Shown here one piece after another: positions 9,520-62,878 of a stretch of 64,000 nt of DNA (the first letter of the stretch is position 1; every line of letters starts with the position of its first letter). The stretch comes from a virus. Taxonomy: Duplodnaviria > Caudoviricetes. The stretch lies in the IMG/VR virus record IMGVR_UViG_3300047157_000186. One strand, written 5' to 3'. Below the pieces are notes generated by a model. It ran no database searches. It worked only from the letters and a program-made list of their open reading frames with translations, and was not told the DNA's origin. A program made the position numbers and the translations under genes.

Positions 9520-12500
9520 ATGAATACTAATAACTCTATTTCTAATTCGCTCAAGAAACTACTTGAAATTAATTCAAATTCTTTAAAGACATTTGAAAGA
9601 ATCAATGAGGCGATAACTACAGATCAAAAGGATGTACCTCTTGAATTGCTAACTGAAGACGGAACTAAAACTGTTTATGTGCCTTCCTTTGGTTACATGA
9701 AAAGAGAATTAGAAAGATTAGATGTTAATTTAAAATCTTTAGCAGGTTTAGGAAAAGGAAATACTAGGATTAAATTACCAGACGGTACTTACCAAAGTAT
9801 TATTACAACACGATTAAAAACTCCTGCAAATGACATAACTAGTTTTGTTAGACCAGTTAATTTTGGTACAAAACCTAACTATTTCTTTGAAGACTTTTTA
9901 AATCCTTTACTTACAACTAGTATTAATGTTAGTGGACAAATTCCAAATGAAACTGAAAGAGTTTTAGTAAAACGAATTTTATTTGATTCTACAAGTGCAG
10001 TCACTGTTGAATATTTTAACACTAATTTTAAAAACAAAGAAAACCTAGATTATAATACTGTAATTAGAGATATTGCAAATAATAGTTTAACATACATACT
10101 AGATGAAGATACTCGTGATCTTCCATATAGAACTGCACAATTTACTGGTAAATTTGATGTATTAAAAATTAGTAATTCTAAAAGAGAAGTTTTAGTCGAT
10201 GGCGTTACTAAAAAGAAAGCTATAAAATTATACACTATAGATTCTTTAACATATTCTGATTCTAATAAAGATCTAAAAGATACTGAAGCACTTAAGGTTG
10301 GAGATGAATTAATGGTTCAAAGCGGTGCTAGAAATACTAGATATAAAATAACTAGAATCGATGGTTCGGCTAATCAGGTTGAATTATTAATAGTAGAAGG
10401 ATATGAATCTATTAAGATCGGAGCCAATCAACTGGGCATATATAAAAACGATGAGGCCAACTTAAGCATAGATATTAATGTAGGATTTAATGAAAGAGCA
10501 TTAGTTTTTGTTAAAGCTATAGATTCAGATTCTAAAATATTGGCAGAAAATTGGTCACCTGGTATTGGATTTTATTCAAACGAATTAACATTAATCCAAG
10601 CTGATGGGTCATCAATTAGATTAGATGATTATTACAAAGCAGAAGTTGCTGATTTTGGGAAATATATTACAGCACTTAAAGAAGATGCTATCCCTCCAGC
10701 AGCACAAGGTATTACACCTGATGCTCCTTCTTTAAACAATAACAACTTTAAAGTAGTTCAAATTAATTCTCATTTGACGGCTAACGATACTGCTGATAAA
10801 ATTAAGAAGCTATCTGCTGATAAAATTAATGTAGAAGAGAAGATTAAGAAATTAGATGAAACTATAGTTAAAAAACGTTCTGAAATTTCTACTAAAAAAT
10901 ATGAATCTTCGATACAACAAGATAAAGATAAAAATGAATTAAACTCACTTATTACAGAGAGAACAAGTGAAACTAGTTTATACAATAGTATTGTAAATCA
11001 AATTCAATCATTAGCTTCTGGAAGCAATGCACCAAAAATTGCCCCTAAGTATAGGGTTAGAGGATTCTGGGAAATTCCAGTGGCAAAGAAAGTTGCTGAT
11101 ACATTAGATCAAAACATTGTTAGATTTGTTGTACAATATAGATACTTGTCAACTAGCGGAAAAGCAAGTGAAGTTACTCAACTACCGTTTACTGATGGAA
11201 CAAGAGAAAAAACAGCAGTCTTTTCTAACTGGAATGAAATGGAAACTAAAGTTAGATCTAGATATAGAAACTCGATCACTAGAAAATTTGAGTGGAAAGA
11301 TAGTTTAGTAGAGGATGCACAAGAGGTAAACTTTAACCAACTAGATCTTGCAATTAACGAAGGTGAATTAGTTGAAATTAGAGTTAAATCAGTATCTGAA
11401 GCTGGATATCCTGCAAACCCAATATATTCTGATTGGTCAGAATCAATTACAATTGATTTTCCTATTACAGAAATCGATACTACTAATGTTGACGCATTGT
11501 TAATGTCAAATGCGGCTGAAACAGCATCCGTTAAAATATCACAAGAACTTACCTCTAAAGGTGTGTTTACACATATTGATGATTCATTTAGTGCTAACGA
11601 AAAATATTATGCACATAACGCAACATCAATTGCATCAGGATTCTTATCAGCTGAACAAAAACCAATCTCAGTATATGATAAAATTGCTGAGTTAGAATTA
11701 CAAATTTCAGAGCTTAAGGGTACGGTAGAAGTTGAAATAGGTGAATTAGTTGTTAAAATAATGGATGAGGACGGTACAATTACCGTTATTAACAATGACA
11801 CCAAAAACCAAATATTTGCTGGTTATTATACAGATGAGGTTGCAAGTCTTACTGTTAAAAAAGGTCACATTGTTACAAAGACGTTTAAACTTCTATTAGA
11901 AAACACAAAAGCTACTAAACTTGAATTAGTTTCAAGATTAGTTGGAGATAGAAACTTACCAGCATATAGATCTAGTGCATCAGGTACTAGTATTGCTGAT
12001 AATGGGTTTGGTGTAAAATTAAATGATTTAGGAGTTGCTGACACCGATAATAAAATTTCGTCAGACAATTATTACACATCTGAAGGTAAATACGATTTAG
12101 TTCCTATTCAGTTTCAAAATATAAGTACATCTTCTATTAATTCTTATGATTTATTAGCTGAAGCACCGTATCAATCAGCACAAAGACGTGGTCAATTTGT
12201 TTATTCTAGATTTATGGATGTTTCAAATCAAAATCCGCTATATGTTACTGAATCATTACTTGGTAGTGGGTCGGTAGATTTTAATAGTTATGAATATGGT
12301 TTAGGGTATGCTATTTTTGAAGGTGATTCAAGTGCAATTAACATTAAAGCATCAACAGGTAACGGTGATTCGGTAGATTTCATATGGACTGGAACGTTCG
12401 GTACACATGGTAATTCTACAAATGCAGACTTAAGTGGAGGTTTTCAATCTGACAAAATAGATGTATGTAGTGTTGGAACTATAGGTGCTGCGAATTATAA

Positions 12501-28636: not shown

Positions 28637-28666
28637 GTTATATGCACTTGCCGAAAAACTGTTTCA
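28637..28666 (-). promoter_or_regulatory. Reverse-strand promoter-like TGAAAC-N18-TATAAC pointing into the RuvC-like gene
   Basis: Reverse complement reads TGAAACAGTTTTTCGGCAAGTGCATATAAC. Confidence 0.35.
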
Positions 28667-40637: not shown

Positions 40638-41294
40638 ATGAAACATATTAAATTACTTGAATCTTTTTTAAATGAATCAATTTCTTTTAATAAAAAAGGA
40701 ATTAAAGTTAAACTAGAAGACAAACTTAGACTTGCCAAAATAGCAGTAGAAAAATGGGGAGATTCATATAGCGGAGTTTTAAACGACGTTGAATCTATTT
40801 TAAAATCAGGCAAATTACCAAGTTATAAAGAACCATTAATGGTACAAGGTGATACTGCAAAAGATTCTTATGATATATTTCAAGGAAGAAATGCTGTAAA
40901 ACTTGCAGAAGCTATTTCTAAAGTAATTAAGAAATATAAGAAATATGAAATTGAACAATCTTCAGTTCCTGCAGCAGGTGGATGGTCAGGTACAATGAGA
41001 TCTACTGTTGGCGGCAAAATTGAAGGAAGAGCAAACTTTAATCCAGGAGGTAGAAGAACATTTTTAATCGCAGTTACATGTGGCGGTGGAATTGACTCAA
41101 AGGTTAAAGATAAAATGTTTCAAGAAATTTACGAATTAATGTTTGTATTAGATGAATATAATTCATCAGACGGCGGAATTATGTTTGATCATTCATCAGG
41201 TACTAATTATAGTACAATTGGATTAGCAAACTCAAGCTATTCTTTTAATAATGGAACAGCTAACAGTTTAATAGATATAATGAACAATCACTAA
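40638..41294 (+). CDS. Putative internal-head protein
   Basis: Leader MKHIKLLESFLNE. Confidence 0.55.
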   Translation: MKHIKLLESFLNESISFNKKGIKVKLEDKLRLAKIAVEKWGDSYSGVLNDVESILKSGKLPSYKEPLMVQGDTAKDSYDIFQGRNAVKLAEAISKVIKKYKKYEIEQSSVPAAGGWSGTMRSTVGGKIEGRANFNPGGRRTFLIAVTCGGGIDSKVKDKMFQEIYELMFVLDEYNSSDGGIMFDHSSGTNYSTIGLANSSYSFNNGTANSLIDIMNNH

Positions 41295-44965: not shown

Positions 44966-44996
44966 AGCCAAACATTTTTTTGTTTGGCTTTTTTTT
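44966..44996 (+). terminator. Intrinsic terminator closing the internal-protein array
   Basis: Stem AGCCAAACA / TGTTTGGCT with a T6 loop, followed by a T run. Confidence 0.75.
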
Positions 44997-45049: not shown

Positions 45050-45268
45050 ATGAGTAATCCACACCATGAACACCAGTTATTTCTTAACAAAACGAGACAT
45101 GGATCAGTAAGAGCATCCAGATATCCTAATGGCTACACGCCAAAGATCGAATATTATCAAGCCCAATTGTCAATTGCAGTTGATAGTCTTGATGTAGAAC
45201 AAATAAAATATTTCACTACCAAGTTAGAATGGTTTATAAAACGACAAGCCGAAAATAAACTATATTAA
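45050..45268 (+). CDS. Hypothetical protein
   Basis: 72-aa ORF with the A-rich start context (AAAACAATTAAAACATG) typical of this genome. Confidence 0.5.
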   Translation: MSNPHHEHQLFLNKTRHGSVRASRYPNGYTPKIEYYQAQLSIAVDSLDVEQIKYFTTKLEWFIKRQAENKLY

Positions 45269-49929: not shown

Positions 49930-50826
49930 ATGGCTCACAATAAACACACGACAAGCACGATGAATCAAGATTTAAATCTTATGATGCCAAATAGACAAGC
50001 ATGGTTAGATTTAGCAGGAGATTGGCAAGATCCATTAGATGATCCAATTATTGTGAATCATGAGGGATTTAATGTAGTGAGAGATGATATGATGGGTTTT
50101 GGATCTAAATGTAGATTTGGAGATATATTAGTACAAAAGGCACCAACAGATACACTAGTATATGTACAGCCCAGATTTGGATTTGCAGGAATTTCTCTTG
50201 CGTATTTAGCAAAAAAATATAATAAAAAATTGGTACTGTTTATGCCATCGGGTAAAGTAATATCAGATCACCAAGCTATATGTATTGAAAGAGGTGCTAT
50301 TGCTAAATTTAGAAGAATAGCGGCAATGCCTAATTTAAATAGAATTGCAAAACAATGGGCAGAAGATAACAATGCTACATTTATTCCTTTAGGTTTAAAA
50401 CATGAATTGGTAACCGCTGCTGCAGTAAAAGTTGCATATGATGTAGCAGAAAAACATGGATATCCAGAAGAAGTATGGTCAGCAATATCAACTGGAGTTT
50501 TACAACGCTCTTTACAAATTGCATGGCCAGATGCTGAATTTAATGCAGTTGCAGTTTCTAGAAATATTCAAAATGGTGAATTAGGTAGAGCTAAAGTTTG
50601 GTCTCATCCTAAGGCATTTGCATCAGATGTAAAACCAGAATTTGCTCCCCCATTCCCATCAGCAATGAACTATGATGCAAAAGCTTGGGAATTTATGGTT
50701 AAGCACGGAAATCAAGGAGCTTGGTTTTGGAATGTAGGTGGACAACCTTACCCAGAATCAGAAGAAACTAAAGAAAAAACAAACTCTAAAAGAGAATGGG
50801 GAGAAGTTTTAGAAATGGACTTATAA
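49930..50826 (+). CDS. PLP-dependent enzyme, fold type II (tryptophan synthase beta / cysteine synthase / ACC deaminase-like)
   Basis: VVRDDMMGFGSKCR (Schiff-base Lys), AGISLAYLAKKYNKKLVLFM, phosphate loop VWSAISTGV, FWNVG. Confidence 0.8.
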   Translation: MAHNKHTTSTMNQDLNLMMPNRQAWLDLAGDWQDPLDDPIIVNHEGFNVVRDDMMGFGSKCRFGDILVQKAPTDTLVYVQPRFGFAGISLAYLAKKYNKKLVLFMPSGKVISDHQAICIERGAIAKFRRIAAMPNLNRIAKQWAEDNNATFIPLGLKHELVTAAAVKVAYDVAEKHGYPEEVWSAISTGVLQRSLQIAWPDAEFNAVAVSRNIQNGELGRAKVWSHPKAFASDVKPEFAPPFPSAMNYDAKAWEFMVKHGNQGAWFWNVGGQPYPESEETKEKTNSKREWGEVLEMDL

Positions 50827-50831
50827 AAACT

Positions 50832-50859
50832 GAAACTTTAAATCAAACTATCATATTAA
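50832..50859 (+). promoter_or_regulatory. Bipartite promoter variant GAAAC-N17-TATTAA
   Basis: Upstream of the dUTPase-like gene and polymerase part A. Confidence 0.4.
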
Positions 50860-50878
50860 TAATATAACAAATTAAATT

Positions 50879-51346
50879 ATGGCAAACATTGACAACGAAT
50901 GTAAGGATTTAGAAGTAAAAGATTTTTACGACAAATCAACAACACACTTATCAGATATCATGGAAAACCAAAAAAAGATGCAAGAGCAAACTTATGGTAT
51001 TAATTTCGATGATATGACAATTAGAGAGATTATGGATTTCTGGCATGTTAACACACACTCACTAATGGATGAAGTTCATGAAATGACAGATGCTCTTGGT
51101 GGAATTAAAGATGGTAGTGGAAACGCAGTATGGAAATACTGGAAAAAAGACTTTACGAAATATAATACATTAAAAATTTCTGATATGTCTGAAGGAGATA
51201 AGAAAGAATTGTATATGGAATGGGTAGATATTCTACACTTCTTTATTAATTATGCATCTTCAATCGGTTTAGACGCTAAGACTGCATATAATTACTACTT
51301 CGCAAAAGCAGAAGAGAACGTTAACCGTCAGAAAAATAATTATTAA
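50879..51346 (+). CDS. All-alpha NTP pyrophosphatase (dimeric dUTPase / T4 gp56 dCTPase / MazG-like)
   Basis: DEVHEMTDAL, WKYWKK and ELYMEWVDILHFF fit the ExxE...ExxD pattern. Confidence 0.8.
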   Translation: MANIDNECKDLEVKDFYDKSTTHLSDIMENQKKMQEQTYGINFDDMTIREIMDFWHVNTHSLMDEVHEMTDALGGIKDGSGNAVWKYWKKDFTKYNTLKISDMSEGDKKELYMEWVDILHFFINYASSIGLDAKTAYNYYFAKAEENVNRQKNNY

Positions 51347-52749
51347 TGCTATTAGATATAGAACAAACCAGTAATGAGTTAATTATATCTTACTATAATA
51401 AAGAAGGTAAAGTCTCATTCAAAAGATATGGTGTAAATCAATTTCAGAATTGGGTAGTCACTAAAGAAACAGACAAATACAAAGACAAAACATATAGAAA
51501 CTGGGACGATCGTCCACTTAAAAGAGGTTTCGCTAAATCATTTAATAAATTTAGTTTATTATATTTCATGGATTCTTTGCCAGAAGAAGACAAGGAAGAA
51601 ATATATGAATTCAATATGCCAAGAACATACTTTGTCGATATTGAAACAGAAATAGTAGACGGCTTTCCAAAACCAGAAGAAGCTAAAAGTAGAATCCTAT
51701 CATTTTCCATTATCACACCCGAGCGCAAAGCAATCGTATTAGGTTTAGAAGATATGCCACATGATAAAGTGAAAAAGATCAATGATGATACTAATGAATA
51801 CTTAAAAAATTACGATCAAGACTGGGAATTCTCATATCATAAGTTTGATAATGAGTATAATATGTTATATACATTCCTTCATAAGTTTTTACCTAAATTC
51901 CCAATGATGACAGGATGGAACTTTATAAACTATGACTGGCAGTATATAGTAAACAGATGTAAAAGATTACAAATCGACCTGAACGATGTGGCTATTACTG
52001 GATCACTTGATAGAAATGATAGCAGACCGCTTCACATGGGTATTCTTGATTATATGCAATTATATGATAAATATGATCGTTCAGTTGCAGTAAAAGAATC
52101 AAACTCATTAGATTTTGTTTCAGGTGCAGTATTAGATATTAATAAAATTAAATATAGTGGATCATTACAAGATTTATATGAAAATGATTTTACTAAATAT
52201 ATTTATTATAATGTAATCGATTCATGTTTAGTATACTATATTGATCAACAATTAAGATCGATGGAAGTTCTTTTAACATTGGCAACTATTACCAGAATGC
52301 CTCTCTATAAAGCTTCTTCACCTGTGGCTATTACAGAATCTTTGTTGGCAAGAAAATTAGCTGAAACTAATAAGAAAATAGGCGTAGAATATGGAAAGGC
52401 AGATTCTCTTAAAGAAGGTAAATTTGAAGGTGCATTTGTAAAGCAACCAATTGTTGGGTATTATTCTGGAGTAAGTGCATTTGATTTCGCTTCGCTATAT
52501 CCATCAATAATGAGACAGTTTAATATTTCACCAGAATCTTTTATTGAACAGGTAACTGAACCTGAAATTAATGAAAGAAGAAAAGATGAGAATGTAATTG
52601 TTTGTGAGAACGGCGTTGTCTATAAAAAGGAAGATTCAATCTTAAAAAAGATTTTAAGTGATTTATATTCCCAAAGAAAAGATTACAAAAAGACGTCATA
52701 TGCGTATTATGAGAAGGCATATGAACTAGAAAAAAAAATAAAAAAATAA
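51346..52749 (+). CDS. gp43A: Family B DNA polymerase, N-terminal part (3'-5' exonuclease + motif A)
   Basis: ExoI FVDIETE, ExoII GWNFINYD, ExoIII YNVID, motif A FDFASLYPS; ends after the first fingers helix (LYSQRKDYKK); lacks motifs B and C. Confidence 0.9.
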   Translation: MLLDIEQTSNELIISYYNKEGKVSFKRYGVNQFQNWVVTKETDKYKDKTYRNWDDRPLKRGFAKSFNKFSLLYFMDSLPEEDKEEIYEFNMPRTYFVDIETEIVDGFPKPEEAKSRILSFSIITPERKAIVLGLEDMPHDKVKKINDDTNEYLKNYDQDWEFSYHKFDNEYNMLYTFLHKFLPKFPMMTGWNFINYDWQYIVNRCKRLQIDLNDVAITGSLDRNDSRPLHMGILDYMQLYDKYDRSVAVKESNSLDFVSGAVLDINKIKYSGSLQDLYENDFTKYIYYNVIDSCLVYYIDQQLRSMEVLLTLATITRMPLYKASSPVAITESLLARKLAETNKKIGVEYGKADSLKEGKFEGAFVKQPIVGYYSGVSAFDFASLYPSIMRQFNISPESFIEQVTEPEINERRKDENVIVCENGVVYKKEDSILKKILSDLYSQRKDYKKTSYAYYEKAYELEKKIKK

Positions 52750-52757
52750 TTTAACAA

Positions 52758-52786
52758 GAGACTAGTAATTCAACTGATATATAAAT
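52758..52786 (+). promoter_or_regulatory. Promoter-like GAGAC-N17-TATAAA overlapping GATATATA
   Basis: Intergenic upstream of nrdB; one mismatch to the GAAAC box. Confidence 0.35.
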
Positions 52787-52806
52787 TACTAAAAATAAAC
52801 AACAAT

Positions 52807-53787
52807 ATGAATAAGAACATCTTTTCACCTAGAGTCAACATTTTACCTTATGAGTACCCACAGTTATTGGCATACAAAGATGCTATTAGACATTCATATT
52901 GGATTCACACTGAATTTAATTTTACAACAGACATAGATGATTTTAAAACTAAAGTTTCTGATTCAGAAAGAGAAGTTATTAAAAGAGCTATGCTTGCGAT
53001 TGCTCAAATAGAGGTTAATGTAAAAACTTTTTGGGCTGATCTATATAAGAGAATGCCTATTACAGAAGTAGGTGACGTGGGTATGACATTTGCAGAATCT
53101 GAAGTAAGACACAAAGATGCTTACGCACAATTACTTAGAGTCTTAGGATTAGAAAAAGAATTTCAAAATGTTGTAGAGATACCTGCAATAAAAGATAGAA
53201 TATCTTATTTAAAAAAATATTTAGACGGGACGAGATCTAGAGATGATAAAATGTATACTAAATCAGTATTGTTGTTTTCTTTATTTATAGAGCATGTTAG
53301 TCTATTTAGCCAATTTCTAATTATGATGTCATTTAACAAAGAGAAAAATCTATTCAAGGGTATTTCTAATGTAGTTGAAGCAACATCTAAAGAAGAAGAA
53401 ATTCATGGTAATTTTGGATCTGAAATTATCAACATTATTAAATCTGAAAACCCAGAATGGTTTGATGAAGAATTTGAACAACTTATTGATTCTGCATGTA
53501 AAAAAGCATATGCTGCGGAAGTTAAAATTCTAGATTGGATTTTTGAAAAAGGAGAATTAGAATTCCTTTCTAAAAAAACCATTGAAAACTTCATACAGAA
53601 TAGATTTAATAATTCATTAACAAGAATAGGAATGAAGCCTGTGTTCGACGTTGACCTTAGTGAAATTGAAAAAACATTATGGTTTGATGTAGAAATCACA
53701 GCAACAAAAGAAGGAGACTTCTTTTACAAGAAACAAGTTGACTACAACAAGAAGAGTAAGTCAATTACAGAAGACGATTTATTTTAA
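52807..53787 (+). CDS. nrdB: Ribonucleotide reductase class I beta subunit (NrdBi / class Id-like)
   Basis: QIEVNVK, ESEVRHKDAY, FIEHVSLFSQF, SKEEEIHG metal ligands; the first ligand is Glu. Confidence 0.92.
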   Translation: MNKNIFSPRVNILPYEYPQLLAYKDAIRHSYWIHTEFNFTTDIDDFKTKVSDSEREVIKRAMLAIAQIEVNVKTFWADLYKRMPITEVGDVGMTFAESEVRHKDAYAQLLRVLGLEKEFQNVVEIPAIKDRISYLKKYLDGTRSRDDKMYTKSVLLFSLFIEHVSLFSQFLIMMSFNKEKNLFKGISNVVEATSKEEEIHGNFGSEIINIIKSENPEWFDEEFEQLIDSACKKAYAAEVKILDWIFEKGELEFLSKKTIENFIQNRFNNSLTRIGMKPVFDVDLSEIEKTLWFDVEITATKEGDFFYKKQVDYNKKSKSITEDDLF

Positions 53788-53808
53788 ACTAATTAAAGAT
53801 TTTACAAT

Positions 53809-55488
53809 ATGAAAGAAGCCGGAACACCTCTCGCAGAGAAACCTGTCGCGATTAAAAGCGATGAAACAAGACCAAAATATTATTGGTTAAATGATGACAG
53901 TAGATTATTTTTATCACGAGGATACATCACTGAAACACCAGAACAACGAATCAAAGACATTGCAAACACCGCAGAAAAGTATTTAAAAGTTGAAGGATTT
54001 GCAAAGAAATTTGAAGATTACATGGCAAGAGGTTTTTACAGTATGTCCACTCCGGTTTGGATTAACTTCGGTAAAGATAAAGGTCTTCCTATAAGTTGTT
54101 ACGGTTCTAATGTAGATGACACATTAGATAGTATTTTAAATGGCTCGAGAGAAATTGGCATGATGTCAAAATACGGAGGAGGAACTTCTATTTATTTAGG
54201 AAACATTAGAGAAAGAGGTGCTACTATTTCTACAGGAGGAACAGCAGATGGACCAGTACACTACGCTAGAATGTATGACACGACAGTTGATGTATGTAAA
54301 CAATCAGAAGCAAGAAGAGGAGCATGCGCAGCATGGTTACCAGTAGAACATAATGATATTTTAGAATTTTTAGAAATAGGCACAGAAGGAAATCCTATTC
54401 AAAATCTACAATATGGTGTTACAGTTACTGATCAATGGATTCAGGAAATGAAAGATGGTGATGCAGCTAAACGTAAAATTTGGGCTAAAGTTATTCAGAG
54501 AAGAAATGAATTTGGCTATCCTTACATTATGTTCAAAGATAACTCAAATAATAATTCTCCCTACAAAGAATTAGGTTTAGAAATTACAGCATCAAACCTG
54601 TGTTCAGAAATTCAACTACCAACAGATTCATTTAATTCATTTGTATGTTGTTTAGGTTCTATTAACCTATTACATTGGGACGAATTAAAAGATACAGATG
54701 CAATTGAAACGTATACTTTATTTTTAAATGCAGTAATGGATGAATTCGTAAAAAAATCTTATAATTTACCAGGAATGGCAAGAGCTCATAGATTTGCTGA
54801 GCAACATAGAGCACTTGGAGTTGGCGTTTTAGGATATCATTCTTATTTTCAATCTAAAAGAGTTGCATTTGAATCATTAGAGGCAAAACAATTAAATCAC
54901 CAAATATTTAAAACTCTTAAAGAAAGAACAGAAGAAGCATCTAAGTGGTTACATGACGAAAAAGGATATAAATCATTAAGAAATGGATTTGCTAATACAA
55001 CATTAATTGCAATTGCACCAACCAAATCAAGTTCATTTATTCACGGAGCAGTAAGCATGGGTATTGAGCCAATTAAATCTAATTACTTTATTAAAGATTT
55101 AGCTAAATCAAAAACAATTTATAAAAATCCATTCTTAGAAGAAGAATTAGAAAAATATGGACTAAACACACCTGCTGTATGGGACGAAATTTTAAAGAAA
55201 GATGGAAGCGTACAGCACTTAGACTTTCCTACTAAAGAAGTATTTAAATCATTTATTGAAATTTCTCCAAGTGAATTAATATTACAGGCTGGACAGAGAC
55301 AAGAATTTATTGATCAATCACAATCACTAAATTTAATGATTCACCCAAGCGTTTCAGCAAAAGATATTAATAAACTTTATTTAAATGCACATGAATCTGG
55401 TGTTAAAACACTATACTATCAATTTAGTCAGAGTTCAGCACAATCATTTTCTAGAAATATTTTAGAATGTGCTTCATGTGAAGGTTAA
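53809..55488 (+). CDS. nrdA: Ribonucleotide reductase class I alpha subunit, short form without ATP cone
   Basis: PISCY, SNLCSEI (NxCxE), IAPTKSSS, TLYY and C-terminal CASC. Confidence 0.93.
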   Translation: MKEAGTPLAEKPVAIKSDETRPKYYWLNDDSRLFLSRGYITETPEQRIKDIANTAEKYLKVEGFAKKFEDYMARGFYSMSTPVWINFGKDKGLPISCYGSNVDDTLDSILNGSREIGMMSKYGGGTSIYLGNIRERGATISTGGTADGPVHYARMYDTTVDVCKQSEARRGACAAWLPVEHNDILEFLEIGTEGNPIQNLQYGVTVTDQWIQEMKDGDAAKRKIWAKVIQRRNEFGYPYIMFKDNSNNNSPYKELGLEITASNLCSEIQLPTDSFNSFVCCLGSINLLHWDELKDTDAIETYTLFLNAVMDEFVKKSYNLPGMARAHRFAEQHRALGVGVLGYHSYFQSKRVAFESLEAKQLNHQIFKTLKERTEEASKWLHDEKGYKSLRNGFANTTLIAIAPTKSSSFIHGAVSMGIEPIKSNYFIKDLAKSKTIYKNPFLEEELEKYGLNTPAVWDEILKKDGSVQHLDFPTKEVFKSFIEISPSELILQAGQRQEFIDQSQSLNLMIHPSVSAKDINKLYLNAHESGVKTLYYQFSQSSAQSFSRNILECASCEG

Positions 55489-55544
55489 AAATTCCGGTGG
55501 TATGAAACAAGACCACATTTTAGGACCGTTTTAGTTAACGGGTT

Positions 55545-55582
55545 GGGCAGAGAAGTTTCGCTACTATCTCTGCCCTTTTTTT
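55545..55582 (+). terminator. Intrinsic terminator after nrdA
   Basis: GC-rich stem GGGCAGAGA / TCTCTGCCC followed by T7. Confidence 0.85.
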
Positions 55583-55596
55583 GTTCATTAATTATT

Positions 55597-55624
55597 GAAA
55601 CTATTTCAAATAACTCGGTATAAT
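55597..55624 (+). promoter_or_regulatory. Bipartite promoter GAAAC-N17-TATAAT
   Basis: Directly after the terminator, upstream of the clamp-like gene and polymerase part B. Confidence 0.6.
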
Positions 55625-55656
55625 ATTCAAATATCATTATCTAAAAATAACAAATT

Positions 55657-56400
55657 ATGAAATTAAAAATTGATCGCATTGACCAACATGCACTAACAGA
55701 GTTTATCAATCGTGTTAAACTTATCGACTCTTTCATTTATATGAAAATTAAAGAGGGACAAATCCACTCAACTGTTTATCTACCACAAAGAGATGCCGTA
55801 AAGCACCACTCTATCGCAGCAGATAAAATCTTTCAAGTAAGTGAATGGCCAGACACTGATAAAGAAATGAAAATTGCATTCTTTGAAGGTAACAAAGTTA
55901 TTGAAGCAATTAAGCATTTTGATCATGACGCAATTAAAGGTGAATTGGAATTTATTGAAAACGATGAAGAATTCGTTGCATCTACATTACGTATATTCAA
56001 TGACGAATTAGAAATTACACTTTCTTGTTCAGAGCCTTCATTAGGATTTAAAGATCTTTCACAAGATCAACGTGATGCAATCTTTGCAAGATCAGATTCT
56101 AAATTTGATTTTACACTTGATACACATTCTATTGGTAAAGTTAAAAACCTATTCTCACTTGATAAAGATGAAACATTCGGTATCAATTCAGACGTGCAAG
56201 GAATCAATGTAAATGGAAAATCATTTAACGTAGTTCTTAATCCTGATACAAGCGGAAATGGTAACGTTACTGTTTACAAAAAGTATTTAAATTTATTAGA
56301 CAAAGAAGAGCAAACGGTATATGTGTCAGACTCGAAGGTTGTATTTGAATCAAACGATTCAGAAACTTTATTGACAATCTCAACTTGCCAAACTGCATAA
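55657..56400 (+). CDS. Probable sliding clamp (gp45/PCNA-like)
   Basis: 247 aa, acidic, two-domain alpha/beta pattern and clamp-like size, coupled to the polymerase; no diagnostic motif seen. Confidence 0.45.
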   Translation: MKLKIDRIDQHALTEFINRVKLIDSFIYMKIKEGQIHSTVYLPQRDAVKHHSIAADKIFQVSEWPDTDKEMKIAFFEGNKVIEAIKHFDHDAIKGELEFIENDEEFVASTLRIFNDELEITLSCSEPSLGFKDLSQDQRDAIFARSDSKFDFTLDTHSIGKVKNLFSLDKDETFGINSDVQGINVNGKSFNVVLNPDTSGNGNVTVYKKYLNLLDKEEQTVYVSDSKVVFESNDSETLLTISTCQTA

Positions 56401-56403
56401 TAA

Positions 56404-57613
56404 ATGACAATAGAAGAGTTAGAACAAAAATCAATTGAACAACTTACAGATGATGAGGCAAAGCTGCTTGTAGACCACTACAAGCAGCTGTCTGCCAAAT
56501 TCACAGCATATGAGCAAGCTGTTAAGTTAACTCTTAACTCTATTTATGGAGCATTTGGTAATAAGTGGTTCCACTTTTTTAATCTTGACATTGCTGAATC
56601 AATTACTAAACAAGGTAAGAATGCAATTCTTTATTCCGAAACAATTCTTAACAAATACGTTAATGATTTTTGGCACAAAGATACTGCAGTACATGATAAA
56701 TTCAACATCAAAGTAAAGGGTAAAATTGAAAAACCCGCAGTAATTTATATTGATACCGATTCATGTTATGTACAGTTTCAAGATTTATATGAATCTATAA
56801 TTTGGCCAGACGAAGATAAAAAATTACCGATTGATGAATTTATTTTAGCGTTTTATGCATTTAGATTAAAAGATTACATATCTAAAACCATGGAAAAATA
56901 CGCAGAGAAAAGAAACACAGATAATTTCTTATTCTTTGAATTAGAATCATTAGCGTATAATGGTATTTGGATGTCTAAAAAGAAATACATTCAAAATCTA
57001 GCATGGGATGATAAACTAGAAGTAACTGAACGCCAATCCTTCATTAAAAAAGGTAAAAACTATTGGATTTGACACAATTCAATCTTCAACTCCTAAGTTT
57101 GCTAGAGAGAAGTTAGTAGAAGCACTTAGAATTTTATTCTCATCAGAGATTCAACCATCAGCAAAAGAATTACAACAGCTTGTTGAGTTTATGAAGCAAT
57201 GTAAAAAAGAATTTAAATTAGCAGACATTGACGATATCGCTTTTAATAAAAGAACAAATAATATTGACAAATATATTATTGATGATCAAGAAGAATTACA
57301 AATAGGTTTAAAATGTCCAGCTAATGTAAAAGCCGCAGGATATTATAATTATATTTTAAATAACAATAAAAAATATAAAAACAAATATAAACTTATTGCT
57401 AATGGTGAAAAACTTAAAATATACAATTGTATAGGATCAATTAGTGAAGTATATGCTTTTATGCCAAACGAACATCCTTATGAAATAGCACCTAAAGTAG
57501 ATTACGATACTCAATTTGAGAAGGCAATGATTGATCCTCTTAATAGAGTACTCACAGCAATAGGTTTACAAACACTAGATACTAATCTAATATATGCTTC
57601 GGCATTATTTTAA
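56404..57613 (+). CDS. gp43B: Family B DNA polymerase, C-terminal part (motifs B, C, thumb); apparent frameshifts near 57040-57190
   Basis: Motif B QAVKLTLNSIYGAFGN, motif C YIDTDS, SKKKY; continues in the 57191-57613 ORF (KAAGYYN...DYDTQFEKAMIDPL). Confidence 0.88.
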
Positions 57614-57624
57614 AAAACATTATT

Positions 57625-57783
57625 ATGAATACACCAACATTTTACGAAACAATTAAAAGTTTAATAAAGCAATATCCTAATGACATGGAATTAGGAAGCG
57701 CAGTTAGACATTTAGATTGGAAAATTGAAGAATCAAATCAAAAAGATCCAAATCAATTAGAAATACAATTTCCAAATAATTAA
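57625..57783 (+). CDS. Small hypothetical protein (52 aa)
   Basis: MNTPTFYETIKSLIKQYPNDMELGSAVRHLDWKIEE...; fills the gap with a good start context. Confidence 0.5.
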   Translation: MNTPTFYETIKSLIKQYPNDMELGSAVRHLDWKIEESNQKDPNQLEIQFPNN

Positions 57784-57786
57784 TAC

Positions 57787-57984
57787 ATGGACATTAAGTT
57801 AACTCCAAAACAACAAGAACATGTTGATGCATATAATGTGATTCTTAATAGAATAAATGGTATTCAATTAAAAATTGATAAACTTAAGGACGAAGCAGCT
57901 GAAGCTCTTGCTGAATTAAATAGACTTAGAAGAGAAGAGCAGTTGATGTTTCCAGAAAATAACACAGAAGAAACAAACGATTAG
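57787..57984 (+). CDS. Small coiled-coil hypothetical protein
   Basis: 65 aa with a heptad pattern. Confidence 0.5.
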   Translation: MDIKLTPKQQEHVDAYNVILNRINGIQLKIDKLKDEAAEALAELNRLRREEQLMFPENNTEETND

Positions 57985-57997
57985 TTTGTGGTATAAT
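57970..57997 (+). promoter_or_regulatory. Bipartite promoter GAAAC-N17-TATAAT
   Basis: Upstream of the recombinase gene. Confidence 0.6.
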
Positions 57998-58016
57998 ATA
58001 AAAACAACAATAACAC

Positions 58017-59126
58017 ATGGCAAAGAAAGATTTTAGTTTTGACGATATAAACGCAGAGTTAAAGGCATTAAATCCTATGGGATCAATTATGGCAGACTCA
58101 ACCTTTAGTGAAGTTACAGAGTGGATCGACACTGGTAATTATCATTTAAACGCATGTGTTAGTGGTTCACTATTTGGTGGATGGCCAAACAATAGAACAT
58201 GTTCAATTGCAGGACCTTCAGGAACTGGTAAAACATTCTTAGTATTGAACTCAGTAAAAAGAGCAATTGATATGGGATATAATGTGATCTATTATGATAG
58301 TGAAGCTGCAGTAGATAAAGATCAGATGGAAAAGTTTGGTATTGATGTTACTAAAGTAAATTATCAACCAATTAACACTGTTCAAGAATTTAGAACATCA
58401 GTTACTACATTAACTAGCTAAAATGCAAGAAATCAAAAGAATGGTGGTAAAACTCCAAAAGTCATGATGATTCTTAGATTCTGCTGGTAACTTAGCAACA
58501 CAAAAAGAAATTGATGATGCTAAAATCAGGTTCTGAAAAAGCAGATATGACAAGATCTAAGGTTTTAAAATCTATTTTTAGAATTATTATGACGCCATTG
58601 GCAGATCTTAAGATACCATTTATTTTTACTAATCACACATATCAAACTCAAGATTTTATATCAAGACAAGTAGCTGGTGGTGGAACTGGACCAGAATATG
58701 CAGCATCAATTGTTCTATTCTTAGGAAAGGCACAACTTAAAGAATCTAGTGGTGAAAAAGCTGGTATTATTGTAACTGCTAAACCAAATAAGAATCGTTT
58801 TGCAAAACCACATAATATTAAATTCCACTTACACTTTACAGAAGGTATGAACAGATATGTTGGGTTAGAACAATATATTGATTGGGAAGAAATTGGTATT
58901 ACAAAAGGTGTTATTGAAAAGGGTGAAAAGATTCCTAAGAAGACTGCAAGAAATTGGATCTGTAAACATTTAGATGAGTCAGTACCTAATAAAGAGTTCT
59001 TTCAGAAAAAGTATTTACAAAAGAAGTACTTAGAAAATTGAAGCAAGAATAGAACACGTGTTCAATTATAATACTGAAGAAAGAGAAATTGATTTAGAAG
59101 AAATACTAGAAACAGATGCAGATTAA
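58017..59126 (+). CDS. uvsX: RecA/UvsX-family recombinase (apparent frameshifts)
   Basis: IDTGNYHLN, Walker A GPSGTGKT, YYDSEAA, LDSAGN, FTNHTYQ, GGGTGPEYAAS, KNRF. Confidence 0.88.
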
Positions 59127-59431
59127 TGAGGATAAGTCTGCCTATAAAATACGTATTAGGTATAGAAAAGGACTTACCAAATTATCCAAGTGCATTTGAT
59201 ATATTATTAGCTGAAATTAAATTATGTGTCAGAATGCCCGACAGACATAAGGGTAACTTTACTTTACATGCTTTAAAAACATATAGGTTTCCAGAAACAG
59301 AAGAAAATCATTTATTAAAATCTATTAATGAGTTAATGGAATTAGGATTTGTAGAAGAATTAAATACTGAGAAGGTAAAGAATCTTGGAAAATCAAAACT
59401 AACCCATTCGAATGATAGTAGTAATAGATAA
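59126..59431 (+). CDS. Hypothetical protein (possibly winged-helix-like; 3' end uncertain)
   Basis: 101-aa ORF coupled to the recombinase stop codon. Confidence 0.4.
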   Translation: MRISLPIKYVLGIEKDLPNYPSAFDILLAEIKLCVRMPDRHKGNFTLHALKTYRFPETEENHLLKSINELMELGFVEELNTEKVKNLGKSKLTHSNDSSNR

Positions 59432-59956
59432 TTTCATTAAAGACCAAGATTTGTTAAGAGATATATCAAATGATATAAATTTCTTTTCAGATCCTGGTGT
59501 TTATTACTGGTGGGATGGTTGGTGGAACGGTGAAGCTAAGTCACTAAAAAAGATTAATAGAACATATTTGGGCAGATAATTGCCCACTTAGTGAAGCTAT
59601 AGCAATTAGAGGTTTTGAATATTGGACAGGTATTCAAACGGCAGATCCAAATATGGGATTTGAAAATAATTTAGGAGGTCATTTCGATAAAGATGAAGAA
59701 CTTTTTGAAAAAACAGGAAAATTAGTAACGCCTTCAATGGGAACTGTATATTATCCAGAACAAGACAGAGTTTGAAGGTGGTATGTTAGAAATTTACAGT
59801 GAAGGTGAAGATAATCCACCAGAGGTAGTGTATGCTAAACCAAATAGATTAGTAATTTTTGATGCAGGTAAATATGTGCATTCAGTTAGACCAGTTACTA
59901 AAGGTACTAGAAAGGCCATCGCTATTAATTTATGGGAACATTACCTTATTAGGTAA
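59412..59956 (+). CDS. 2OG-Fe(II) oxygenase, prolyl-hydroxylase-like (apparent frameshifts)
   Basis: MIVVIDNFIKD start; GFEYW, GHFDKDE (HxD), NRLVIFD, VHSVRPVTKGTRKAIAINLW (distal His and Arg) across frames. Confidence 0.7.
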
Positions 59957-59999
59957 ACAAAACAATATTTCCATAGAAGGATAAAGTAATAAACAATAT

Positions 60000-61310
60000 A
60001 TGCAATTCGGACAAGACTTTGAAAAAATATTCTTTAGATTATCATTAGTTAAAAGCCTAAGTATCTACAAAGCTATTAAAACAACTTTTATACATCAGAA
60101 GAAATTGATATTTAAGTTTTTTAGCTAATAAATTCTATGCTAAATTTAATGAAACTCCAACTAAAGATCAATTAGTTATTAGTTCAAAGATCATGAAAAA
60201 GCAAAAGAAAAAATCACAGAAGATATTTTAGATCTAGTATTTGATGTAGACTTAGATCAATACGACGAAGAGTGGTTAACTACTACTGCAGAATCATGGA
60301 TTAAATGGAGAACTTTTGAATACTCTAATAGATACTATTGAATTTATTAAAACTACAAGGTAACACCTGAAAATGTAGAGCATTGTTACCAAAAGTTAAA
60401 GGGTCTTATTAATGATAGAAATAATTTATCATTTAATTCTGATTTAGGTCTTGATTTCTTTGAAGTAGATTCACATGATCAAAAAGAATACAGAGAAAGT
60501 AAGTACTGGATATAACTTTTTAGATAGAATGTTAGGTGGTGGTTATGACAAAGGAGGTAATTTAATTGTATATGCAGGTGAACAAAACATTGGTAAATCA
60601 ATATACTTAGCAAATGATGCAGCCAACTTTGTTAAAATGGGAACTAACACTGTAGTATTACTGCAGAAATGGCAGCTCATAAATTTGTAAAAGAATAGGT
60701 TCAAATCTTCTTAATATTAATATTAATGACTATGCTGATAAAGCTAAAAACAAAGATCATATTAAGCGTAGATTAGAAACTGTTGGTGATGGATTTACTC
60801 CACCTGGTTCAACTATTCGTTAAACAATTTCCAACATCACAGGCAACAGTATTAGATATTGAAGCTTATGTTAATCAAATAGAAGAAGAGCGTACAAATA
60901 AAAGTTGGTGCAGTTGTTATTGACTATATTAACATTCTTAGCTAATTACAGAAATCAAAATACGGAAAATACTTATATGAAGATCAAGCAAATTGCAGAA
61001 GATCTTAGAGCTATGGGTATTCGTAATAATTGGTTAATTGTAACAGCAACACAAATAAACAGAAATGGCTATAATTCTTCAGATATTTCAATGACAGACG
61101 TTGCAGAATCTGCAGGTCTTTCACATACAGCTGATGTAATGTTAGGTATTATTCAAGATGATCTTAATGCGAGCTAACCAAGAATATTGGTTAAAGGTTC
61201 TTAAAAATTAGAGATGGTGAAGGTAAAGGAACTAAATGTAAATTAAATATTAATTGGAATTACATGAGGTTAATCGAAACCGAAGAAATTACTAACTCAA
61301 ACTTACATAA
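60000..61310 (+). CDS. gp41: Replicative DNA helicase, T4 gp41/DnaB-like (multiple apparent frameshifts)
   Basis: STGYNFLDRMLGGG, Walker A AGEQNIGKS, IDYINIL, TATQINR, AESAGLSHTAD. Confidence 0.85.
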
Positions 61311-61324
61311 AAATAAATATAATT

Positions 61325-61765
61325 ATGGCAAAAAACGATAAAATTTTTAATAATAGTTTTGACACACCAGACATTTGAGTTTGGTAATATTAATTTTGAA
61401 TTAGATCCTAACGTAAAAGATAATAAAGACGAAGAAGATAAAATTCATTTGAATGATCGCCAGAAAATACACATGATTAATTGAACTGTTTCTAGATTTA
61501 AAGTTTTTAATGAAGTAGATGATTTAGGAAGATGTAATACTCTTAAAAAGGCAGACATTAATGAGTATATACGGATATATCATAGATGAAATGGCAGCTA
61601 AAAATAGCTAATATAGATTTATTTAGCGAATTATGTGTATATTTTGATATTAATCCTACAAAATTTTATAGTTCTCTTTCTAATGTATATAAAGAAGATC
61701 TTAATTCAAGAATTAGATAACAAAACAGGTATTTTAGAAAAGAAGAACATTAAAAATTATTTTAA
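61325..61765 (+). CDS. Hypothetical protein (frameshifted)
   Basis: ATG at 61325 with a typical start context; the reading frame is broken by indels before the next gene. Confidence 0.35.
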
Positions 61766-62878
61766 ATGATTGAACCCAAAGTAATTGGGCAAGGTGCCAA
61801 TCGAGTATGGGTTCTTGGAGATTTACACTTTGGTGTAAGAGCAAATTCTATAGAGTGGCTAGATATTCAAAAAGACTTCTTCGAAGAAGTATTTATCCCT
61901 ACATTAAAGAAACATGTACAACCTGGTGATGTCCTAGTACAAGTAGGAGATACCTTTGATAATAGACAATCTATTAATATTAAAGTATTAAATTACGCAG
62001 TAATCTATTTGAAAGACTAGGTGAAATTTTACCAGTTCATGTAATATGTGGTAATCATGATATATGGGCTAAGAAGTCAAATGATATAACATCGATCGAT
62101 AGTTTAAAATGGATTCCTAATGTTCAGATTTATAAAGAACCAGAGTTATTAAATTGGTCTGGTAAGAAAATATTAATGATGCCATGGAGAAGAGATGCAG
62201 AACATGAAACAGAAACTCTAGCAGATTACCCACAAGCAGATATTGTATATTGTCACTCTGAAGTTAGAGGTATTTACCTTAATGCTAAAGTTAAGAATGA
62301 ACACGGTACAGATTCTAATATTTATGACAAGTATACAAGAGTTTACTAGTGGACATATTCACTTTAGACAAGAGCGTGGTAAATTATTAATGGTTGGAAC
62401 TCCATATCAATTAACAAGATCAGATCGCTAATAATACAAAGGGTTTTGATCTTGTAGATTTAAAACATATGGAAGAACATTTTTGAGAATGACGTTTCAC
62501 CCTAAATTCTTAAATACAATATTATAGCAACTATATGACATTCCATTAGGTCACATTTAAAACAAATAAAAATAATTTTGTAGATTTATTTGTACCTTCT
62601 ACAAATAGCTACAACAAATGCGTTAAGCCAATTAATCAACAAAATTCAAAATATTAGTAGAAAATTAGAACCAAATATTTATCAAGAAGAAAACTACATT
62701 GATAAAGATTTTTATGACATAATGAAGATAGAAGAAATGTATAAGAATTACAATATCCTTAAATTTATGTAACATGTATGTTGATAGTATAAATGATGAT
62801 GAGGAAACCAAAAAACTAAAGAGCAAGTTAAAACAATTGTACACTCAATGTGCATATAACTACGATACAGAAATATGA
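61766..62878 (+). CDS. gp47: Mre11/SbcD-like recombination nuclease, T4 gp47-like (frameshifted)
   Basis: LGDLHFG, VGDTFD, CGNHD, SGHIH metallophosphoesterase motifs. Confidence 0.88.

Follow-up and report, generated by a model that had tools for sequence, protein, structure and literature searches.

A probable two-subunit T4-type DNA polymerase, split at the fingertip, in an uncultured marine jumbo phage

The stretch of DNA analysed here, called the window below, comprises 64,000 nt of an uncultured marine T4-like giant (jumbo) phage (IMG/VR record IMGVR_UViG_3300047157_000186). It encodes a family-B DNA polymerase (PolB) in two separate genes, polA and polB, between which lie the genes for a ribonucleotide reductase (RNR; nrdB and nrdA) and for a sliding clamp, the region of interest being wholly on the plus strand. 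It is very probable that this is a genuine two-subunit replicative polymerase of the T4 type with permuted genes, and that a break in the polB reading frame at position 57035 is an assembly error. The split is of the known gp43A/gp43B fingertip kind; the arrangement of RNR genes, terminator, promoter and clamp gene between the halves is new and widespread, and it differs from the known cases in genetic origin.

The proteins of the window were assigned to Pfam and PHROG families at E ≤ 0.01. The product of polA contains an N-terminal domain, the 3'-5' exonuclease with Exo I-III, palm motif A and fingers helix N with its RKxxK sequence; that of polB contains fingers helix P with motif B (KLTLNSIYG), palm motif C (YIDTDS), KKKY as the KKxY motif, the thumb and an ...IYASALF tail, the hallmarks of family B being divided in this way over two genes. 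Both match PHROG families of stand-alone polymerase halves: phrog_2062 (N-terminal halves) matches polA over its full length (E 6e-81), and positions 5-195 and 243-370 of phrog_1918 (C-terminal halves) are covered by the two open reading frames (ORFs) into which polB falls in the window. The aligned part of polA corresponds to residues 84-488 of RB69 gp43, with 17 further polA residues beyond it, and the aligned parts of polB to residues 552-714 and 724-818. In an alignment to an RB69-like enzyme of 903 aa, polA ends at residue 505 and polB starts at 506, which places the cut between fingers helices N and P (ca. RB69 500-515), that is, at the fingertip. An initial annotation of this DNA had described a PolB split at the tip of the fingers; its ORFs, coordinates and gene order are borne out, with the cut at ca. 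RB69 505.

Each half has its own start and stop codon, an ORF structure seen in 63 contigs, and 3,654 nt separate the polA stop from the start of polB (56404). These contigs derive from a scan of IMG/VR in which the best 80 of 302 related loci were taken (polA identity 76-100%); the 63 contigs among them that reach both polA and polB are the basis of all gene-order counts given here. A comparison of gene order in relatives had been suggested at the outset, and all 63 contigs have the order polA - nrdB - nrdA - clamp - polB - uvsX. Across them polA measures 466-475 aa, the gap between polA and polB 3,654-5,772 nt, and the spacing between the clamp gene and polB 2-7 nt. A megablast search with the polymerase region against the phage collection returned no match. 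The nearest record, G001, stops at about window position 40,900 and does not enter the comparison.

A search of 1.84 billion representatives for homologues of polB gave, as its 150 best matches, 123 complete sequences and 27 fragments. Stand-alone C-halves starting at the fingertip account for 113 of the 123 complete nearest representatives, the other 10 being unsplit. By this sequence count the two-gene PolB is the usual state of a large uncultured, mostly aquatic T4-like/jumbo clade.

Strong purifying selection acts on both halves. The ratio of nonsynonymous to synonymous substitution rates (dN/dS) is about 0.06 for polA and about 0.07 for polB, values that are rough because dS is saturated; the catalytic motifs of exonuclease and polymerase are invariant in the 29 diverged sequences compared, and in polA D98/E100, N192..D197, Y288..D292 and D380..Y385 are invariant. 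An intact PolB was not recovered from the 64-kb window, where tblastn with the RB69-like polymerase finds only the polA and polB pieces, nor from five related contigs of 140-176 kb, which do contain both halves. CheckV rates these five contigs 45-61% complete, from which a jumbo genome of about 280 kb follows. That the halves are decaying relics, replication being left to an intact PolB or to a polymerase of another family elsewhere, could be argued from this unseen remainder of the genome and from the frameshift in the window's polB. It is nevertheless very unlikely, given the invariant motifs and the low dN/dS, the absence of the frameshift from all relatives and from four public sequencing runs, and the 113 stand-alone C-halves among 123 complete representatives, which would not be expected from decay. 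A possible stand-alone exonuclease is a separate ORF of ca. 250 aa in the related contigs G003 (147884-148330), G006 (121087-121503) and G005 (12088-12495), which matches the PolB profile weakly and in the exonuclease part of the profile only (positions 112-226, E 1e-6 to 3e-9).

The polB gene is read as two ORFs in different frames in the window (56404-57072 and 57191-57613) because of an extra A at 57035, where the window has CGCCAATCC and its relatives CGCCATCC. The initial annotation had taken this second part of the polymerase for a single gene, which is correct for the relatives (one ORF of 400-402 aa) but not for the window as it stands. The two nearest relatives (L013 and L014) lack the extra A and have a single polB frame of 402 aa, and each of the 60 contigs with a complete polB reads it as a single frame of 400-402 aa. 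Contigs of four public runs, two of seawater DNA and two metatranscriptomes, leave out base 57035 at full depth and also revert the indels in uvsX. Relative to the two near relatives, there are no private indel columns from 50239 to 57034 and about 66 from 57035 to 62750, the first being 57035 itself; single-base private indels after this point break uvsX (58017-59041) and short ORFs beyond 59 kb. These comparisons indicate that the last ca. 7 kb of the window are of low quality and that the breaks are not in the phage itself, that the extra A is most likely a sequencing or assembly error, and that the true polB is a gene of 402 aa. Findings in 57035-62750 are to be read with indel errors in mind. 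A biological break, either a third split or a programmed +1 frameshift regulating polB, would accord with the fact that the two polB ORFs jointly span the whole C-half. It is most improbable, the extra A being private to the window and the first of dozens of private single-base indels, with no slippery run at the site.

It is hardly credible that the halves are joined into one chain by a split intein or by RNA trans-splicing. In a distant relative, the 462-kb phage LR756500, this region does contain homing endonuclease genes, together with an interruption that resembles an intein, but a Pfam scan matched no intein or Hint family on polA or polB, and in every relative each of the two genes starts and stops at codons of its own. 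The RB69 alignment of the polA and polB ends leaves no unaccounted fingertip residues and hence no room for an intein; these ends align to the fingertip of unsplit polymerases and not in the manner of a split-intein 'fractured gene'. The lack of intein motifs reported earlier is therefore confirmed by both the scan and the alignment.

Nor, on sequence comparison, is the separation of polA and polB a misassembly. The check for contiguity proposed with the initial annotation is answered by an independent public seawater DNA contig, which covers 52500-58004 with 4 mismatches and 1 gap, and 20 runs from 20 studies contain at least half of the sampled words of the stretch (ca. 90% in 14 DNA runs, 67-81% in six metatranscriptomes). 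A chimeric assembly or misjoined junctions may be practically dismissed, despite the private indel columns and poor 3' quality after 57035, since this contig bridges the region, the order is repeated in 63 contigs from many samples, the runs of 20 studies hold the sampled words, and private indels are lacking from 50239 to 57034.

The two new termini had been described as extra charged helical extensions through which the halves would reassemble as an extended coiled coil. The helices are present; they are not extra, the fingertip being of normal T4-type length. From RKxxK in helix N to the lysine of motif B there are 59 residues in the window's split enzyme; seven unsplit relatives range from 35 to 69, the RB69-like enzyme has 73, and the split LR756500 polymerase has 72. 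Compared with the nearest unsplit relative (46 residues) the surplus amounts to only about 13 residues, at the N-terminus of polB. Coiled-coil extensions were consequently rejected: the tip length lies inside the range of unsplit relatives, and the termini are ordinary hypervariable T4-type fingertip helices rather than added handles. Reassembly by a coiled coil also fits poorly with the predicted complex, in which the main part of the interface is the palm sheet (polA 360-394 with polB 111-126 and 170-193) and the remainder consists of antiparallel fingers helices (polA 433-465 with polB 11-50). This complex was predicted with an interface score (ipSAE) of 0.79, compared with 0.00 for the best of three controls, with at least 94% contact agreement between runs and a partner predicted local distance difference test score (pLDDT) of at least 83; in calibration 58 of 80 solved complexes reached the ipSAE mark, as did 2 of 110 mismatched pairs. 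The pass may reflect model memory, because single-chain structures of RB69/T4 gp43 have been solved, and the prediction is a statement of likeness to the intact fold, not of binding.

In the two-subunit enzyme the N-terminal domain, proofreading exonuclease and palm motif A would come from polA, together with fingers helix N; fingers helix P with its motif B would come from polB, as would palm motif C, the thumb and the hydrophobic tail. Separately made, they would form an obligate heterodimer in which the palm sheet has strands from both chains and the fingers hairpin has one helix from each. To our knowledge, experiments have demonstrated the assembly of such a heterodimer for other split PolBs only.

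Until now, split gp43 was regarded as an oddity of a few cultured T4-like phages, brought about by mobile-element insertions. As the initial annotation had stated, T4-like phages with gp43A and gp43B split in the fingers are known, and cases are found in Aeromonas, Acinetobacter and Vibrio phages. Fingertip splits in phages 133, 44RR, 31, 25 and 65, with the split ORFs 2 bp to 3 kb apart, are mentioned in PMC3061061, citing Petrov 2006 and 2010. Aeromonas phage 25, Acinetobacter phage 133, Vibrio phage PVA8 and LR756500 have their polymerases cut at RB69-like residues 508-514. The literature searches yielded these known gp43A/43B cases and no description of the arrangement in the present clade; the 'moraphage' paper lists two polymerase virus orthologous groups with no mention of a split.

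Aeromonas phages 25, 31, 44RR and 65 (annotation of DQ529280) are cut in the same loop (ca. 512 vs ca. 505 here), their exonuclease and motif A are likewise parted from motifs B and C and the thumb, and neither system has an intein. Their two cistrons, however, are adjacent or parted by no more than a short untranslated stretch, an intron and a homing endonuclease gene, whereas in the window this place is taken by 3.65 kb with the RNR and clamp core genes, a terminator and a promoter; the window's polA is only 25% identical to 43A of Aeromonas phage 25. The halves of Acinetobacter phage 133 (HM114315) are 2.9 kb apart and are also cut in this loop, but their spacer consists of eight small, mostly hypothetical ORFs, and its clamp, clamp loader and regA genes remain at the T4 position 5' of 43A, while the clamp gene of the window directly precedes polB. 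Vibrio phage PVA8 (Schizotequatrovirus), with halves of 496 and 366 aa cut in the same loop, differs in having a small ORF and an opposite-strand HNH endonuclease gene between them, an arrangement suggestive of a recent mobile-element event. The derived order is found in LR756500 as well: its stand-alone polA of 472 aa is followed by a homing endonuclease gene, by nrdA in interrupted form and by further genes, after which come the clamp gene and then polB. Mobile elements are numerous in LR756500.1 (L001, 13416-24491; L003), where a 647-aa homing endonuclease gene stands right after polA, nrdA is in two pieces with a gene of no known kind between them, and polB is interrupted directly after motif C (YIDTDS), its remainder lying 2.2 kb further on. 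The point directly after YIDTDS is a classic intein site. The engineered split of Pyrococcus furiosus (Pfu) PolB is also near the fingertip; according to PMC3061061 the cut enzyme keeps its full activity, it can be rebuilt from fragments produced separately, and folding of the C-fragment depends on the N-fragment. It differs from the present case in being artificial and bicistronic with coupled translation, and in the much shorter fingertip of the archaeal enzyme.

The origin of the arrangement is illuminated by the third-best polB match, an unsplit PolB of 869 aa from a related uncultured phage (P0123, contig Ga0116249_10002535, locus L097). It has 43% identity to polA and 49% to polB and the same neighbours, in the order MazG - nrdB - nrdA - NUDIX - clamp - pol (869 aa) - uvsX - dnaB, the MazG homologue (40% identity) being directly 5' of nrdB. 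In L097 the polymerase is one gene after the clamp; in the window its 5' 1.4 kb lie between MazG and nrdB. Only the placement of the 5' half of pol thus sets the split form apart, and the change is a local permutation of existing neighbours, not an insertion of foreign or mobile DNA. Insertion of the RNR operon into a polymerase gene was rejected on the same grounds. In a quick FastTree of the C-halves the 10 unsplit representatives are each nested singly among split ones, and 11 changes of state are required, including the unsplit RB69-like outgroup, no better than with shuffled labels. Arguments on the ancestral state diverge: parsimony points to an old split with repeated re-fusion, the synteny with T4 (clamp ... 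pol ... uvsX) to an ancestor with an unsplit gene. Among the 113 stand-alone C-halves (within representatives P0122-P0261), 34 are 475-770 aa long; in about two thirds of these an insertion starts behind residue ca. 119-121 (motif C), as an intein would, and the others are extended at the C-terminus by ca. 180-200 aa.

The coordinates of the two halves, of the genes around and between them and of the associated signals are collected in Table 1.

Table 1. Features of the split polymerase region of the window
Feature	Position	Strand	Remarks
MazG/dUTPase-like nucleoside triphosphate (NTP) pyrophosphohydrolase gene	50879-51346	+	phrog_173, E 2e-13
polA	51346-52749	+	467 aa; N-terminal subunit of split family-B DNA polymerase; PF03104, PF00136, phrog_2062
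nrdB	52807-53787	+	class I ribonucleotide reductase small subunit; PF00268 E 8e-58, phrog_86
nrdA	53809-55488	+	ribonucleotide reductase large subunit; PF02867 E 2e-96, phrog_84 E 3e-143
Three-hairpin RNA element	55496-55582	+	directly after nrdA; from sequence, fold and covariation
Intrinsic terminator	55545-55582	+	hairpin 3 (55545-55575) and T run (55576-55582); GGGCAGAGA...TCTCTGCCC + T7, GC-rich
sigma70-like promoter	55595-55624	+	TTGAAA-18-TATAAT; 11/12 consensus matches; clamp-polB unit
Sliding clamp gene	55657-56400	+	247 aa; gp45/PCNA-like two-domain fold
polB	56404-57613	+	C-terminal subunit; PF00136, phrog_1918; two ORFs in the window, 402 aa in relatives
Extra A	57035	+	breaks the polB frame; private to the window

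The presence of nrdB, nrdA and a clamp-like gene between the halves, noted in the first reading of the sequence, is upheld by Pfam and PHROG for the RNR genes and by a Foldseek comparison of folds for the clamp. The MazG-like gene overlaps the start of polA with its end and is directly 5' of polA in related contigs as well, as a conserved left neighbour. The RNR is of class I, with a PF00268 small chain and a PF02867 large chain; PF00317 scores 24.2 bits on nrdA, under the 28-bit cut-off. In the related loci L030-L092 the slot between polA and the clamp gene is always filled by an RNR pair of one of two very different types, at least 90% identical to the window's pair in some loci, whereas in most the identity is 28% for nrdB and 39% for nrdA; occasionally 0.1-2 kb of additional genes follow nrdA. 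The pattern resembles an exchange of cassettes at a fixed site.

The 247-aa gene matched no Pfam or PHROG family at the threshold used, PF02916/PF09116 and PF00705/PF02747 included. Its AlphaFold2 model (pLDDT 73.8, with low confidence for residues 159-205) has two tandem beta-alpha-beta-beta-beta clamp domains. All of the top 50 Foldseek matches in the PDB are PCNA or beta clamps (probability 1.0, template modelling score 0.55-0.64), and a language-model search likewise indicates gp45 and PCNA clusters. By its predicted fold, the protein is a sliding clamp. Canonical gp45 (PF09116) gave no match in the five related contigs, a result that says little because PF09116 misses the window's clamp too. 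Clamp homologues are found just 5' of polB in LR756500 (37% identity, a 169-aa ORF between) and in L099, the polB of which is only 41% identical (hhalign probability 99.9, a 61-aa ORF between); the 319-aa gene before polB in L100 has no detectable clamp homology. For P0129, P0124 and P0135 the surroundings of polB are mostly limited to short contigs. In the window a single stop codon (TAA) separates the clamp gene from the polB ATG, and polB is probably translationally coupled to the clamp gene. The hydrophobic C-terminal tail of polB is conserved (...NLIYASALF in the window, ...NLIYSSSLF in LR756500) and is comparable to the clamp-binding ...ASLFDMFDF of the RB69-like enzyme; it is a putative clamp-binding tail.

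The terminator and new promoter that had been noted between the halves are conserved. The motif TGAAAC-N16-18-TAnAAT stands 17-33 nt 5' of the clamp ATG in all 50 distinct upstream regions of relatives, and a terminator-like hairpin precedes it in 48 of them. This type of promoter motif (TGAAAC-N-TATAAT) has only four sites in the 64-kb window; two others, at 28666 (minus strand) and 28701 (plus strand), form a back-to-back divergent pair, and the remaining one, at 52362, is within polA. The start of the polA-containing unit may be marked by a terminator (44966-44989) and a promoter-like site (45180-45209) further upstream. Thus polA would be transcribed in an upstream unit together with MazG, nrdB and nrdA, ending at the conserved terminator, and polB in the next unit, behind the conserved sigma70-like promoter and immediately after the clamp gene; the two units may be regulated independently. 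RNA contigs of two metatranscriptomes from different studies end at 55523 and 55526 and resume at 55658 and 55700, where DNA contigs are continuous, a weak hint of two transcripts. In both, contig depth is 7-10 over the nrd genes and 27-36 over clamp-polB, which agrees with a separate, stronger clamp-polB unit; these depths were not counted as evidence because contig depth is a poor measure.

The terminator is the third hairpin of the RNA element after nrdA, which begins ca. 8 nt past the nrdA stop in the window and ca. 25-45 nt past it in relatives, and which occurs 3' of nrdA of both RNR types. Within it the single-stranded TTAGGACCG is invariant, and the loops TAGTT and (G)TTCGCTACT are conserved. 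Compensatory changes preserve pairing in 7 of 11 pairs of hairpins 1 and 2, while hairpin 3 takes the form of 17 distinct fully paired stems among 31 sequences, 30 of which have a T-rich tail. The ends of the RNA contigs at 55523 and 55526 fall inside the element. Rfam has no family for it, as searched with the window and six more distant loci, and it may be a new 3'-untranslated-region-derived or regulatory RNA; a conserved structured RNA with a terminator after nrdA is in any case a candidate new RNA motif. Distant copies of the signature CTTAGGACCG ... CGG ... TTCGCTAC are present in L130 (ca. 905), L132 (ca. 8683), L160 (minus strand), L170 (ca. 2879), L102 (ca. 7330) and L108 (minus strand), some continuing ...AAAGTGAGC. 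No adjoining nrdA was detectable next to these copies in other IMG/VR phage contigs, and the motif may therefore extend beyond this clade.

Several points weigh against a two-subunit polymerase made from two transcription units. Assembly and activity of polA and polB are inferred for this phage. A second, intact polymerase may be encoded elsewhere, because the related contigs represent 45-61% of a genome of ca. 280 kb. Comparison alone cannot separate a private frameshift mutant from a sequencing error at 57035. The evidence for separate transcripts, namely motifs, conservation and RNA contig ends, is indirect, and the two metatranscriptomes that provide the contig ends may contain DNA.

It is rather doubtful that the split is used and not merely tolerated, in the sense that the enzyme forms only when two differently controlled units are on and that the arrangement has been selected. 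If true, polA would be made with the genes for deoxynucleoside triphosphate supply (MazG, nrdB, nrdA), and polB, which carries the putative clamp-binding tail, would be produced from a promoter of its own in a constant ratio to the clamp. The timing and stoichiometry of the holoenzyme would then be set by gene order, and selection would lie behind both the dominance of the split (113/123) and the pairing of clamp and polB down to ca. 40% identity.

Natural splits of replicative polymerases show where the enzyme tolerates cutting. The picture is changed by the present case in that the two-gene form is common in a large clade, that the halves may be placed in different transcription units and that the C-half is tied to the clamp gene. 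PolB trees and completeness checks that expect one gene of ca. 900 aa would miscount these phages, which matters for annotation and for marker-gene surveys.

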